Positions 19,621 through 27,842 of a DNA stretch of 64,000 nucleotides are shown piece after piece. The translations under genes were made by a program, and so were the position numbers. The stretch's first letter is position 1; every line of letters begins with the position of its first letter. A model generated the notes under the pieces. That model did no database searches and had not been told where the DNA came from. It saw only the letters and a program-made list of their open reading frames with translations. The DNA is from Nitrosopumilaceae archaeon. GTDB lineage: Archaea > Thermoproteota > Nitrososphaeria > Nitrososphaerales > Nitrosopumilaceae. The stretch is from assembly GCA_965209085.1 (NCBI GenBank), contig OZ242376.1:352001-416000 (forward strand), written 5' to 3'.

Positions 19621-19872
19621 ATGAGTGGGAAACCCCGTATGCCAGAATGGACGGGAAGACCGGTAGTAATGAACATCAAAGCGGGGGATAGTATAGCGTA
19701 CTGTATGTGCGGACTCTCAAAGAACGGTCCAGTATGTGACGGCACCCACAAGGGTACTTCAATAAAGCCCCAGGTGGAAAAATATGACGCTGATGCGCGC
19801 ATATCCTCATGCGGATGCAAACGATCCAAAGCAGTACCGATGTGCGATGGCACGCACAAAGAACCCGAATAA
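19621..19872 (+). CDS. CDGSH iron-sulfur protein with two domains
   Basis: CMCGLSKNGPVCDGTH and CGCKRSKAVPMCDGTH. Confidence 0.92.
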   Translation: MSGKPRMPEWTGRPVVMNIKAGDSIAYCMCGLSKNGPVCDGTHKGTSIKPQVEKYDADARISSCGCKRSKAVPMCDGTHKEPE

Positions 19873-19933
19873 GTCTGCGTACGGTTTGTTAAATTATGCA
19901 GGTTTAAGAAATGCCACAGATACTGTGGATGTG

Positions 19934-20812
19934 ATGGATTTTCAAAAGATACTAAACGAATACACTTTGGAGGATTTTCCTGCAGGCCTGACCGGATGCA
20001 GAAGTGACGGCACATCGCACGAATGCTGCGAATATGATCTTACTGTATTTGATGAACGCAATGAGCTTGATACTGTGGCAGAATACGGGGATTCACTAGT
20101 ATGCATAAGACACCGTTCACTTTCATCGCCGCGTTCTCCGGACATGGTAAGATATGATGATATGAAAATAATTTCCGATGCATCGTGGGATCTGCACATG
20201 TTACTTGCGCGCATACGTGAAAAACGAACCGAACTGTATGCCGATTACATGAGGGATTCACTTATCGATTCGATGTTTTGCACCACAAAATTTCGAGAAG
20301 GGTTGAAAATGTCGGATCCATTTGCAATCTGCTGGATAAAATGTGCCGCGTTGTACCTGGCTGATGCCGCACTTTTATCATGCATGGAAAGACCGTCTCC
20401 AACACACGCACTGCATAAACTTCGCATGGTGCAAAAAAAGATCTCCGGTAACGCGTTTTCACTGGTAAACGAATGCATGGGAGCTGAACGCGCCACACCT
20501 TCGCTGCTTGAACGCATGGCAAAATCCACCGCGGGATTTTCCGATACGGTGGAAGGAAACGATCATTCAAAAATAATACTGCACAAAACCAAATATCTTT
20601 TGTCCGAATCGCTTTTGGCAGACTGTTATTTCTATCTCCAGTATGAAAACAGGAACATGCTGATAAAAATAAAAAACCAACTCCGAAAGAAACCCGATCT
20701 GATTTACATATTAAAAGTGTCAATGGATGTGGGGGTGGATACGGGCATGCTGGAAAATTACGCCCACAGGCTGTACGGGGAGGCAAGCCGTATACTTGCT
20801 GAACGTACGTAA
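19934..20812 (+). CDS. Hypothetical protein with nucleotidyltransferase-like N-terminus
   Basis: GLTGCRSDG...CEYDLTVF followed by a helical region; start moved to ATG 19934 to avoid the CDGSH gene. Confidence 0.65.
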   Translation: MDFQKILNEYTLEDFPAGLTGCRSDGTSHECCEYDLTVFDERNELDTVAEYGDSLVCIRHRSLSSPRSPDMVRYDDMKIISDASWDLHMLLARIREKRTELYADYMRDSLIDSMFCTTKFREGLKMSDPFAICWIKCAALYLADAALLSCMERPSPTHALHKLRMVQKKISGNAFSLVNECMGAERATPSLLERMAKSTAGFSDTVEGNDHSKIILHKTKYLLSESLLADCYFYLQYENRNMLIKIKNQLRKKPDLIYILKVSMDVGVDTGMLENYAHRLYGEASRILAERT

Positions 20813-20885
20813 AATGATACGAATATGTGAAAACACCTGTGTGGTTTTTCTAAACCTTTAAACTAAACTCTTTGAAAATGTCACC

Positions 20886-21026
20886 ATGTCAGATGCATCA
20901 TGCGGTTGCGACGCCTCCAACGAGACCGGTAACATATGTGATTGCGACATACAGGGGCAATGTTTTTGCGATGCAACATGCGAGTGCAGATCCAACCTTT
21001 GTAAAGACGCAACAAAAGACATGTAA
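20886..21026 (+). CDS. Metallothionein-like Cys-rich microprotein (46 aa)
   Basis: MSDASCGCDASNETGNICDCDIQGQCFCDATCECRSNLCKDATKDM: 9 Cys, four CxC; TTTAAA about 25-30 nt upstream of the ATG. Confidence 0.78.
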   Translation: MSDASCGCDASNETGNICDCDIQGQCFCDATCECRSNLCKDATKDM

Positions 21027-21130
21027 AATGTCCATTATGCACTATTTTTTAGATACTTTTACTATGCGTGATCATTTTTTTGATAAATATACCGTAATGT
21101 ATTAAAGCAAATTTGGCATGTGGTAATTAT

Positions 21131-21919
21131 ATGAAGTACGTTTTACTTGCATTTACAATTCTAACCGTTTTTGGAGCCATACAACATGTTGCTGCACTGG
21201 ATACAGGCACTGCGGCCGAAAACGATTGTCCAAGAGACTATGATTATGTGCAAATCCAAAAAAATTCTTCGCTCTCATCATACCTAATCGATGTGACATA
21301 CGGTCCGCCTGAGATTAAACTTGGATGTGACATTGAATGGATCATAAATTTTTTAAACCCGCGCAACCAATCTGAATTTTTAGAAAACGTCCAGTATGAC
21401 ATTATTTTGGATGCATCCGTGAATAATAACGATCCGCACATTATCCAATCACTTGCATCAGACGAAGGAGGTCGGTTCCTATATTCGTCATCAGGACAGG
21501 CTGAAAAATTTATGACGGTAAACCATTCCATCAATCCGACAAAATATGTGATTCTAGTGTACGGTCTCTCACCTTTGGATGTAAAACCGTCTGGATTCTT
21601 TGAAACTTTGGAGATAAACGTACCATTTAACGAACCTACCGTACCGGTAAAGTTCGTACCGGAATGGATAAAAAAATCCGCCTCGTTTTGGATTCAGGGT
21701 CATACCGGCGACATTGAATTTGTCTCCGCAATGCAGTATCTGGTAAACGAGGGCATCATAGTACTGCCTCCTACAGAAAGCGGCTCTGACACGGACGGAG
21801 GTATCCCAGGCTGGATCAAAAATACGGTGGGATTTTGGGTGGACGGACATACAACTGATGCAAAATTCACAAGTGCCATACAATACCTTGTAAAACAGGG
21901 CATCATTGTTCTCTCATAG
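21131..21919 (+). CDS. Secreted protein with two C-terminal thaumarchaeal (V/I)PxWIK repeats; shortened paralogue of the next gene
   Basis: Signal peptide; VPEWIKKSASFW...EFVSAMQYLV..GII and IPGWIKNTVGFW. Confidence 0.82.
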   Translation: MKYVLLAFTILTVFGAIQHVAALDTGTAAENDCPRDYDYVQIQKNSSLSSYLIDVTYGPPEIKLGCDIEWIINFLNPRNQSEFLENVQYDIILDASVNNNDPHIIQSLASDEGGRFLYSSSGQAEKFMTVNHSINPTKYVILVYGLSPLDVKPSGFFETLEINVPFNEPTVPVKFVPEWIKKSASFWIQGHTGDIEFVSAMQYLVNEGIIVLPPTESGSDTDGGIPGWIKNTVGFWVDGHTTDAKFTSAIQYLVKQGIIVLS

Positions 21920-22053
21920 ATGCAAACTCTGGTCAGATATTGCCAAAATCGTTCATAACGGGATAAAACACATGTTACGTTTAGTGCCTAACATGTAAAA
22001 ATTTTTGAAAAATCTGGCATAAAATATTATAATGGGTGCGAATAAACAACATT

Positions 22054-23487
22054 ATGAAATACATATCTGCTGCATTTGTAATTTTATTTGTAATCGGTGC
22101 AGCACAGCATGCTGCAGCGCAGGATATCGGAGGCGGCGTGGACAAGAAAGGAACCTGGTACGTGGGCGAAGGTCTCAAAATAGGAGAAAGATTTGAATAT
22201 TCTGTGTGCCATGTGGCGTATAAAGAGTGCACGCCTTTGGTAATGGATTTTTGGATCAAAGGTAATATTGTAGAAGGCACTGAAACCAAATGGCTGGTCG
22301 AGACTGTCGTATATGATGGAAAAAAAATAATCAAAGGCCAGATGCATCTTGGCAAAGTGGCTCCGGAACCTACGGGAGGCTCACTTGAATTGCGTTCGTA
22401 CGCAAGCGTATTCAAATCTTCGATTGTATGGCTTTCTGCATTTGCAACCTCTTATGGCGGCGAAGGAGGGGAAGGTCCAAAAGAATTCAAGGCCGTCTCG
22501 TGGGGCAAAATAGGCAACATTGGAGGTCAGCAGGTAAAACCAACCCAGATAGAAACTGTAAGCACAAGAGAGGGCATAATATATGATGCGGTGCAGGTAT
22601 CGTGGCGTACCGGAGGCTCGACTAGCAAGATTTGGATTGTAGATGAATTCCCGTTCCCGGTTAAAGCTAGTACGTGGGTACACGTAGCGGAAGGCATTCC
22701 GCCGCAAGAATACAAATTTGAACTGTTAAATTATGAAGATGGAGTAACGGAGGATCCGTATGCTGACATAGTACCGACCGCTCTAAAAATCAAGCCAATA
22801 AACTGCCCAACAGATTATGATTATGTCAAAGTCAAAAAAACATCATCTGGGAATTCTTATCTGATAGATCTCAAATACGGTCCGCCGGAGATTAAATTTG
22901 GATGCGACATTGAATGGATTATAAACTTCCGCAGTCCGTACGATGAATCTGACTTTGTGTATCAGGTTCAATACGATATTTTTGTGGAAGATCCAAACAA
23001 TGCAGAGATTGTCCAATCGCTTGCAAAAGATGAAGGTAGCCAGTTCCTGTATTCGGCGTCGGGGCAGATTAGAAGACACATGGAAACTGACACTTTTTTT
23101 AATCCTACAAAATACATCGTCATAGTGTACGGGCTGGCGGCAAAGGATGAGGTACCAAAAGAATTACCTGAAACTCTGGAGATAAACGTACCATTTAACG
23201 AACCTACCGTGCCAGTAAAATTCGTACCGAAATGGATAAAAAAATCCGCCTCGTTTTGGATTCAGGGTAATACTAGCGACATTGAATTTGTCTCCGCAAT
23301 GCAGTATCTGGTAAACGAGGGCATCATAGTTTTGCCACAGACTGAAAAAACCCAGGATTCTGGAGGAAATATTCTAAATTGGATAAAACAGACAGTGAGA
23401 TTCTGGGTGGATGGCCATACAACTGATGCAGAATTCACAAATGCCATACAATACCTTGTAAAACAGGGCATAATCGTCCTCTCCTAG
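22054..23487 (+). CDS. Secreted protein with two C-terminal thaumarchaeal WIK repeats
   Basis: Signal peptide; N-domain GTWYVGEGLK...EFPFPVKA; C-terminal half paralogous to the preceding gene. Confidence 0.85.
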   Translation: MKYISAAFVILFVIGAAQHAAAQDIGGGVDKKGTWYVGEGLKIGERFEYSVCHVAYKECTPLVMDFWIKGNIVEGTETKWLVETVVYDGKKIIKGQMHLGKVAPEPTGGSLELRSYASVFKSSIVWLSAFATSYGGEGGEGPKEFKAVSWGKIGNIGGQQVKPTQIETVSTREGIIYDAVQVSWRTGGSTSKIWIVDEFPFPVKASTWVHVAEGIPPQEYKFELLNYEDGVTEDPYADIVPTALKIKPINCPTDYDYVKVKKTSSGNSYLIDLKYGPPEIKFGCDIEWIINFRSPYDESDFVYQVQYDIFVEDPNNAEIVQSLAKDEGSQFLYSASGQIRRHMETDTFFNPTKYIVIVYGLAAKDEVPKELPETLEINVPFNEPTVPVKFVPKWIKKSASFWIQGNTSDIEFVSAMQYLVNEGIIVLPQTEKTQDSGGNILNWIKQTVRFWVDGHTTDAEFTNAIQYLVKQGIIVLS

Positions 23488-27069: not shown

Positions 27070-27842
27070 TAGTATCCGACGTGTACACTGTATTTTGGAG
27101 GGAGATGAAACGCTATAAAAAATCTCGCAGCGGCGTGCTCATACGTCTAATACAACCGGCAGTATGGATTATAGTTATAGGAAATACGTTTTCCGGAACG
27201 CAGCCTCTCATAGAGGCGGTTGGATTTGACGGGGAATATATTGAATTTATGGCTCCGGGTGTAATCGTACTTACGGCAATATTTACCAGCATCTTTGGAG
27301 GCGTTAATACACTGTGGGACAGACGGTACGGATTTATGAACAAAGTTCTCATGTCGCCAATCTCGAGAGTTTCAATAGCTTTGGGCAAAATGCTCGCAAT
27401 ATCGATGATTGCCGCAATGCAGGCTGCATTAATAATCGCAATAGCATTGGCAATCGGCGTAAGCTATCCTGGAGCGGGCGCCATAGCACTGGTAATGGGT
27501 ATTGTGGTGCTGTTTTCACTGGGATTCTCCGGCATTTCAGTTGCAGTGGCCGCAACTGCAAAGTCGCAGGAGACATTTTGGGGAGTGATCAATTTTCTTG
27601 GAATGCCTCTTTTTATGCTCAGCCCTGCACTTTTTCCACTGGAACTGCTCCCCGATTGGCTCGCTTTTGTGGCAAAACTCAACCCTGTAACGTACACGGT
27701 GTTGTTAATACGCAGTCTAATGACCGGCGTAGACGCGGGCGTACCAACATTTACCAGTCTTGGCGTGATATTCGCATTCGTAATAGTGATGGTATTTGTG
27801 GCCGGATACGTCTTTACACGTGAGGCTACAAAGCCGTTTTAA
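27066..27842 (+). CDS. ABC-2 type permease
   Basis: Six TM segments, FMAPG, LNPVTY; GTGA overlap with the ATPase. Confidence 0.93.
   Translation: MIVSDVYTVFWREMKRYKKSRSGVLIRLIQPAVWIIVIGNTFSGTQPLIEAVGFDGEYIEFMAPGVIVLTAIFTSIFGGVNTLWDRRYGFMNKVLMSPISRVSIALGKMLAISMIAAMQAALIIAIALAIGVSYPGAGAIALVMGIVVLFSLGFSGISVAVAATAKSQETFWGVINFLGMPLFMLSPALFPLELLPDWLAFVAKLNPVTYTVLLIRSLMTGVDAGVPTFTSLGVIFAFVIVMVFVAGYVFTREATKPF

Follow-up and report, generated by a model that had tools for sequence, protein, structure and literature searches.

The beta-type domain of metallothioneins carries nine cysteines and binds three divalent ions (Zn(II) or Cd(II)) or about four to six Cu(I) ions. Its count and layout, four CxC motifs plus one further cysteine, are the same as in the archaeal microprotein that we describe here. 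To our knowledge, reviews describe metallothioneins as undescribed in, or absent from, Archaea. Our literature searches returned no paper on a metallothionein of ammonia-oxidising archaea, and the exact phrase 'archaeal metallothionein' was not found in full text. Bacterial metallothioneins are given as rare examples in PMC7558416, which puts MymT of Mycobacterium tuberculosis at ~4.9 kDa with a predicted capacity of up to six Cu(I) ions, and which places the discovery of Csp1 in a methanotroph.

The idea of a metallothionein in the present lineage is not new at the annotation level, since orthologues of the microprotein have already been named automatically 'Metallothionein' (UniRef, for Nitrosopumilus) and 'metallothionein 4' (IMG); the NCBI label is 'hypothetical protein'. 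The named orthologues include UniRef100_A0A0C5C143, AFS82280.1, AJM93030.1 and WP_014962771.1, and the database cluster representative is 49% identical over 100% of the query.

The microgene and its conservation

We analysed a stretch of 64,000 nucleotides, referred to below as the window. It contains an ATG-to-TAA frame of 46 codons, in which an earlier note had seen a candidate metallothionein missed by the open reading frame track:

20886..21026, + strand: coding sequence of a 46-residue, nine-cysteine microprotein (stop TAA at 21024..21026), identified by 34 orthologues and the codon pattern

The product, as computed from this frame, is indeed the acidic peptide with nine cysteines and one aromatic residue that had been noted. 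The cysteines lie at positions 6, 8, 18, 20, 26, 28, 32, 34 and 39 and form CGC, CDC, CFC, CEC and a lone C; F27 is the sole aromatic residue, and His, Trp and Tyr are absent. With seven Asp and two Glu against two Lys and one Arg, the protein has a pI of 4.05, and cysteine accounts for 9 of the 46 residues (19.6%) in a mass of 4877 Da. The whole 1,693,554-base genome contains 10,497 ATG-started ORFs of 25 to 90 residues, 50 of which have at least six cysteines and at least 15% cysteine; the microprotein is the only one among these 50 with four CxC motifs.

Other small cysteine-rich genes were seen in the same genome. Three ORFs, at G000:C1:1385625..1385759 (- strand), 932181..932294 (+) and 1374547..1374723 (+), encoding 44, 37 and 58 residues, look like real zinc-ribbon or cysteine-cluster microproteins and not like off-frame noise. 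A second, unrelated microgene at G000:C1:30953..31057 (35 residues, seven cysteines) is present in all 24 sampled genomes of the family and in one genome of another family, and lies ~3.1 kb from a CopD-family gene (27506..27838).

We searched 60 relatives in six frames, comprising 36 genomes of the same family and 24 genomes from 19 other families of the order. Each of the 36 family genomes, like the window's own, has a stand-alone open frame of 45 to 65 codons, and the 24 genomes from other families gave no convincing match to the microprotein. In the latter, the search gave three weak matches (E 0.037-0.54), of which two contain in-frame stops; we put these down to chance, along with a third match in the window's own genome, which is also weak (E 0.349) and has an internal TAG. 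A single-sequence word-index search returned one match only, and a profile was needed to reach the family. With the alignment profile, 178 of 180 further genomes of the family were found to contain the module (175 of 177 if the unpublished matching genomes G173, G259 and G307 are excluded); the two genomes with no match are 97% and 95% complete. Outside the family, the same search covered 120 genomes, from 14 families of the class, without a match. Against 1.84 billion representative proteins, the profile has 30 matches at E <= 0.001, of which 29 belong to the same family in free or fused form, one being a 129-residue protein with an N-terminal membrane segment; the thirtieth is, by inspection, an unrelated repeat protein. 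Public orthologues are labelled Nitrosopumilus, Nitrosarchaeum, Nitrosotenuis, Nitrosotalea, Nitrosopelagicus and Cenarchaeum, and the family is therefore the Nitrosopumilaceae.

Our orthologue alignment includes 34 of the 37 family copies, those of G021, G023 and G036 being left out. The proteins measure 44-49 residues, with 18.4-21.3% cysteine and a pI of 4.05-4.71. Thirteen columns are invariant (M1, D3, C6, G7, C8, C18, D19, C20, C26, C28, C32, C34 and C39) and Q23 is conserved in at least 90% of copies. Conservation of the cysteine pattern among relatives, which the earlier note had proposed as a check, is thereby confirmed: all nine cysteines are retained in 34 of 34 orthologues, and their spacing is constant in 33, the 34th having an added tenth cysteine. 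Aromatic residues number one in 27 proteins, two in five and none in two; histidines number none in 15, one in 16 and two in three.

Could the frame be a chance ORF or a non-coding RNA that is never translated? We consider this practically negligible, as it is already contradicted by the comparative data. The ATG is found four or five codons ahead of the first cysteine and the frame is open in all 34 loci. Summed column entropies for codon positions 1, 2 and 3 are 38.2, 35.7 and 61.8, both TGT and TGC are used in every cysteine column, and dN/dS is 0.02-0.35 in close orthologue pairs; this codon-position pattern, the synonymous changes of cysteine codons and the low dN/dS all point to coding. 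A search of 20500..21400 against Rfam gave no match at E up to 1. These comparisons show that the microgene codes for protein and evolves under purifying selection. It occurs throughout one archaeal family and only there, as a single copy in a streamlined lineage.

The gene is frequently overlooked by gene callers. The exact microprotein sequence is absent from a 15-billion-protein collection that does contain a paralogue encoded on the same 1,693,554-base contig (the fused protein described below), so that the suggestion of a gene missed in annotation is plausible. The main tryptic peptide deduced for the protein, with 35 residues and eight cysteines, would explain an absence from standard proteomes.

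Transcription unit and gene neighbourhood

The sequences flanking the microgene contain the following elements:

20829..20850, + strand: imperfect palindrome GAAAACAC..GTGGTTTTTC, not significant and not conserved
20850..20862, + strand: BRE-like CTAAACC followed by the TATA box TTTAAA (20857..20862), 29 nt before the ATG; predicted promoter of a leaderless transcript
21045..21050, + strand: T6 run, a likely archaeal oligo-T terminator, 18 nt past the stop and kept in a same-genus genome
21075..21081, + strand: second T run (T7), downstream of the T6 run

A TATA box at leaderless spacing had been claimed for this gene, and the orthologous loci bear this out, with a box between -28 and -31 in all 34. 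The motif TTTA[AT]A starts 29 nt upstream of the ATG in 27 loci, 28 nt in four, 30 nt in two and 31 nt in one, and occurs just once elsewhere within the upstream 60 nt of the 34 loci. Archaeal TATA boxes are centred about 26 nt before the transcription start site; at the spacing found here, the transcript should therefore start at or next to the ATG, that is, be leaderless. In the alignment with the same-genus genome, identity begins abruptly at CTAAACC-TTTAAA, spans the gene and stops just past the T6 run. Positions 20850..20879 are identical at 30 of 30 sites, despite a pS of 0.42 at the synonymous sites of the gene, and the sequence 5' of 20850 is unalignable. Within 30 nt of the stop, 33 of 34 loci have a run of at least five T, and within 80 nt all 34 do, as a raw count without a shuffle baseline. 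Given the conserved BRE/TATA start and the conserved T6 end, the transcription unit would therefore extend from about 20850 to 21050 and be monocistronic.

The palindrome pointed out by the earlier note is present just upstream of this unit, but it is neither significant nor conserved. Its fold of -5.3 kcal/mol (z -0.70) is equalled by 41 of 200 shuffles, and it is not retained at the same-genus locus, where identity starts only at the BRE/TATA element; we thus ruled it out as an operator. Its T5 run (20845..20849) probably terminates the gene that lies upstream, whose stop codon is at 20810..20812. A run of at least five T occurs at -41 to -43 in 8 of 34 loci. A scan of 20600..21200 for sigma-70 promoters and intrinsic terminators produced one site of each kind, both within shuffle expectation and irrelevant to an archaeon.

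Three genes define the surroundings of the microgene:

19934..20812, + strand: upstream syntenic gene, 292 residues; 29 of 34 loci have a homologue in this position and strand
21134..21919, + strand: partial paralogue of the exported protein that follows, inserted between the microgene and 22036..23487
22036..23487, + strand: downstream syntenic gene for a 483-residue predicted exported protein; 32 of 34 loci have a homologue on this side, one of them on the opposite strand

The upstream frame is open over 342 residues (19784..20812). We set its start at the Met codon at 19934, because homology begins there and because a CDGSH gene (19621..19872) overlaps the earlier part, so the true upstream gene is probably the one listed. 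A language model places its product near NTP_transf_2 (PF01909) clusters (0.93, 177-178 features), which is a lead only; the 292-residue upstream and 483-residue downstream proteins both have no Pfam or NCBIfam match. The exported homologues at relatives' loci have 400-500 residues. In the window, 21134..21919 and 22036..23487 are tandem paralogues, likewise with no Pfam or NCBIfam match, whose common C-terminal half ends in two repeats of ~35 residues; the shorter is an insertion specific to the window's lineage and the longer is the one kept downstream in relatives. In 29 of 34 relatives (for example locus L007), the microgene is directly followed by a convergent gene of ~55 residues on the opposite strand. 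Its product has a conserved N-terminal CxC, two His, a further Cys and an acidic tail, and no Pfam match. The window's genome has no such gene at the microgene, its sole relative elsewhere being a 119-residue protein with neither Cys nor His (L043 1498..1857).

Pfam scans identified PurE, a CDGSH protein, SIMPL, a tRNA intron endonuclease and a TPR protein as other neighbours, all of housekeeping type, and found no metal transporter, metal sensor, radical-SAM or other maturase among the ORFs adjoining the microgene. These scans bear on two alternative functions. A carrier or delivery protein for iron-sulfur clusters would be rich in cysteines, as this one is, and in the window's genus a CDGSH gene of [2Fe-2S] type lies two genes upstream. 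However, CDGSH is adjacent in only 2 of 34 loci, and we set this linkage aside; the microprotein, moreover, contains no CxxC or CxxCxxC motif of the ferredoxin type and has no Pfam match, which makes such a role quite improbable. A second alternative is the precursor of a ribosomally made, post-translationally modified, cysteine-rich peptide. SCIFF- or ranthipeptide-like precursors have a similar size and cysteine density, so the microprotein resembles them in both respects, but its neighbouring ORFs include no radical-SAM gene or other maturase. Since the gene is also universal and single-copy in a streamlined lineage, and the module recurs as the tail of a large membrane protein, we regard this reading as very improbable indeed.

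A membrane-bound copy of the module

The window's genome contains a second copy of the module (55% identity over residues 2-43, E 5.6e-10):

G000:C1:1328989..1330362 (locus L002 268..1641), outside the window: fused paralogue, a 457-residue type-I membrane protein with the module as its last ~45 residues

The family alignment gives the order of its parts as a signal peptide, an ectodomain of ~290 residues, a hydrophobic helix, an R/K-rich stretch, a Gly/Gln/Thr-rich linker and the nine-cysteine module. The linker is conserved and the nine module cysteines are invariant in the fused family, spaced 1-9-1-5-1-3-1-4 in 30 of 30 copies; the ectodomain of the paralogue is free of cysteine, and 26 of the 30 proteins have none outside the module. 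By the positive-inside rule, the R/K-rich stretch after the helix means that the module should face the cytoplasm, from which we infer that it is the cytoplasmic tail of a membrane protein. The cytoplasmic location which had been proposed for the microprotein is supported in the same indirect way, as it has no signal peptide and its fused counterpart follows a helix and a basic stretch.

The fused form was found in 14 of 37 family genomes with a single-sequence query, against 37 of 37 for the free form. The fused family has 2435 database matches at E <= 1e-5, all of them nameless or called 'putative exported protein', and no Pfam match. AlphaFold2 models the ectodomain of the fused paralogue confidently (147 residues with pLDDT of at least 90) and the tail and helix with values below 50. 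With this model, Foldseek found no PDB match at E <= 0.001 (TM ~0.1), and in a wide VIA-align search no chain reached Z 5, the best value being 4.8. The model shows an ectodomain with no recognised fold, which is not proof of a new one.

A tree of free and fused modules (47 columns) is poorly resolved. The one well-supported split (100/99) sets the 17 copies that have x10 spacing apart from every x9 copy and every fused tail. The tree is compatible with a single origin of the fusion without demonstrating it.

In view of the fused protein, one may ask whether the nine cysteines hold a zinc cluster that is structural, and whether the module acts in protein interaction or signalling; the free form would then modulate or mimic the tail of the ~450-residue membrane protein and not buffer metals. 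Zn3Cys9 clusters have structural roles in the pre-SET and CXC domains of eukaryotes, and a nine-cysteine cluster can also be purely structural. The main argument for this alternative is that the same module, with identical cysteine spacing in 30 of 30 copies, forms the C-terminal tail of a type-I membrane protein; in one metagenomic protein, the module also follows a short multi-helix membrane segment. In addition, the invariance of D3, G7 and D19 and the conservation of Q23 in at least 90% of copies imply more constraint than chelation alone requires. However, the distribution of the two forms with this query leaves most free copies partnerless, the neighbourhood contains no binding partner, and no fold is predicted for the microprotein (pLDDT 56.2). 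We thus consider a structural zinc domain rather unlikely, although it is the main rival to a cytosolic metal buffer.

Proposed metal binding and likeness to metallothioneins

Metallothioneins are operationally defined by a mass below ~10 kDa, a high cysteine content in CxC, CC or CxxC motifs, and few or no aromatic residues and histidines. At 4877 Da, with 19.6% cysteine in four CxC motifs, one Phe and no His, the microprotein has a composition (small, 20% Cys, CxC only, almost no aromatics, acidic) that fits this definition. Its CxC pairs, as read from the sequence, cannot make the CxxC knuckles of zinc fingers or rubredoxins, and its acidic pI argues against nucleic-acid binding. The label 'metallothionein' is based on composition and cysteine pattern only. 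The identity put forward by the earlier note thus stands as regards composition and a conserved gene, but there is no homology to the Pfam metallothionein families at curated thresholds.

The window protein has no significant match in Pfam or NCBIfam (for Pfam, none at E up to 10), and the family profile matches no PDB chain at E up to 10. When the 34 orthologues were scanned singly at E up to 10, five gave weak matches to PF00131, the best with E 0.019 and short of the curated threshold; eight touched PF22906, an unrelated family, with a best E of 0.034; and none matched PF02069 (SmtA/BmtA), to which the window protein, having no His, cannot be assigned. Nor does it belong to the Csp family (PF03860): Pfam gives no match, and the AlphaFold2 model contains no helix of at least four residues. 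In this model the microprotein has no stable fold (mean pLDDT 56.2, pTM 0.27). An absence of pre-formed fold is expected of metallothioneins, which fold around their metals, according to PMC7558416. The low-confidence model is compatible with a metal-thiolate cluster and proves nothing. In a language-model comparison the nearest entries are two unnamed clusters of 47 residues (0.94 and 0.93), and the nearest named ones are metallothioneins (PF02067, 0.85, 175 features; PF02068, 0.78; PF00131, 0.77), which we take as leads only.

The host is an ammonia oxidiser, as the earlier note had assumed: the genome contains an archaeal amoA (394.7 bits). Profile searches of this single-contig, 98.35%-complete genome gave two CopD-family matches and found no HMA domain (PF00403), no P-type ATPase (PF00122), no DUF326/Csp (PF03860) and no ZIP; among 14 control genomes, 13 have an HMA domain and all 14 a P-type ATPase. 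HMA is found in 10 of 36 family genomes versus 16 of 24 from other families of the order. All 10 HMA-bearing family genomes also keep the microgene, which is not, then, a simple substitute for HMA or CopA, being present whether or not a gene of that type is. The gene complement of the window's genome leans towards Cu(I) in a circumstantial way; copper and zinc cannot be told apart from sequence.

In a genome with CopD genes of the copper-uptake type and no recognisable cytosolic copper chaperone, store or efflux pump, a universal and family-specific metallothionein-like protein is an obvious candidate for a cytosolic buffer. We propose, with a probability of roughly 0.6, that the microprotein works as a buffer of Cu(I) and/or Zn(II) in the cytosol, where it forms a metal-thiolate cluster. 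On this reading the microgene, which has a conserved promoter and terminator of its own, would serve as a housekeeping gene and encode a metallothionein-like protein of one domain. The protein would be disordered without metal and fold upon binding, its nine cysteines (CxC-x9/10-CxC-x5-CxC-x3-CxC-x4-C) wrapping soft metals into one metal-thiolate cluster in the reducing cytoplasm. By analogy with known nine-cysteine domains, the protein may carry three or so Zn(II)/Cd(II) ions, or between four and six Cu(I) ions. It would buffer and hand on Cu(I) or Zn(II) in a cell that has CopD and no recognisable HMA chaperone, P-type efflux ATPase, Csp or ZIP, while the paralogous module would be tethered to the inner membrane face as the tail of the type-I membrane protein.

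Ammonia oxidation suggests another use for so many thiols. In a host that makes NO during this process, the protein might be a thiol-rich scavenger or sensor of redox changes, NO or peroxide, for instance a thiol buffer of sacrificial or reversible type, its metal binding being incidental. Its 20% cysteine and cytoplasmic location would suit this, as would a housekeeping-type, stand-alone gene with no metal regulator nearby, and metallothioneins themselves also defend against oxidative stress, as stated in PMC7558416. Nine cysteines at exact CxC spacing, however, indicate a defined cluster geometry and not bulk thiol, and no thioredoxin- or peroxiredoxin-type neighbour is conserved. We find this explanation unlikely, and less so a structural zinc domain, and we retain the metal buffer as our reading.

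A broader and speculative proposal, which we hold to be rather doubtful, is that the copper (perhaps zinc) economy of Nitrosopumilaceae is a two-part thiolate system, in which the free module and its inner-membrane-tethered counterpart replace the chaperone-and-pump logic of the CopZ/CopA type, missing from this genome, and feed or protect the copper-rich ammonia-oxidising machinery. If true, Archaea would have their first functional metallothionein, and the tethered form would be the first membrane-anchored one in nature. Members of this family, which oxidise ammonia, rank with the most abundant microbes of the ocean and rely strongly on copper enzymes. If the biochemistry were proven, the metallothionein class would reach into the third domain of life, and the microgene might serve as a marker for metal stress in marine nitrifiers.

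How does the microprotein compare with the systems already described? The role that we propose for it is the one of Csp1 and Csp3 (PF03860), as presented in PMC7558416: to store Cu(I) on thiolates in the cytosol of an organism that needs much copper and oxidises a small reduced substrate. Csps, however, are pre-folded tetramers of four-helix bundles, whereas the microprotein has 46 residues and no predicted helices. SmtA/BmtA (PF02069) are described in the same source as prokaryotic, small, cysteine-rich proteins for which cytosolic metal sequestration is proposed, and in this the microprotein resembles them, but SmtA has a zinc-finger-like fold with His ligands and the microprotein has no His. 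MymT, likened to it from the description given there, is also the product of a previously unannotated small ORF, and is likewise cysteine-rich, prokaryotic, cytosolic and ~4.9 kDa. MymT is induced by copper and required for copper resistance.

The closest likeness in architecture is to the nine-cysteine, beta-type domain of vertebrates and crustaceans, also a small single module made mostly of CxC motifs plus a lone cysteine, with almost no aromatics; PF00131 is the only metallothionein family to match any orthologue (5 of 34, best E 0.019). There is no significant homology to the vertebrate domain, which is Lys-rich whereas the microprotein is acidic (pI 4.05). The microprotein also differs in standing alone, in its wider cysteine spacing (x9/10, x5, x3, x4), in being archaeal and in its confinement to one family. 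Judged by these comparisons, it stands for a new archaeal family without homology to the known ones, of a functional kind already described, accompanied by a predicted membrane-tethered form.
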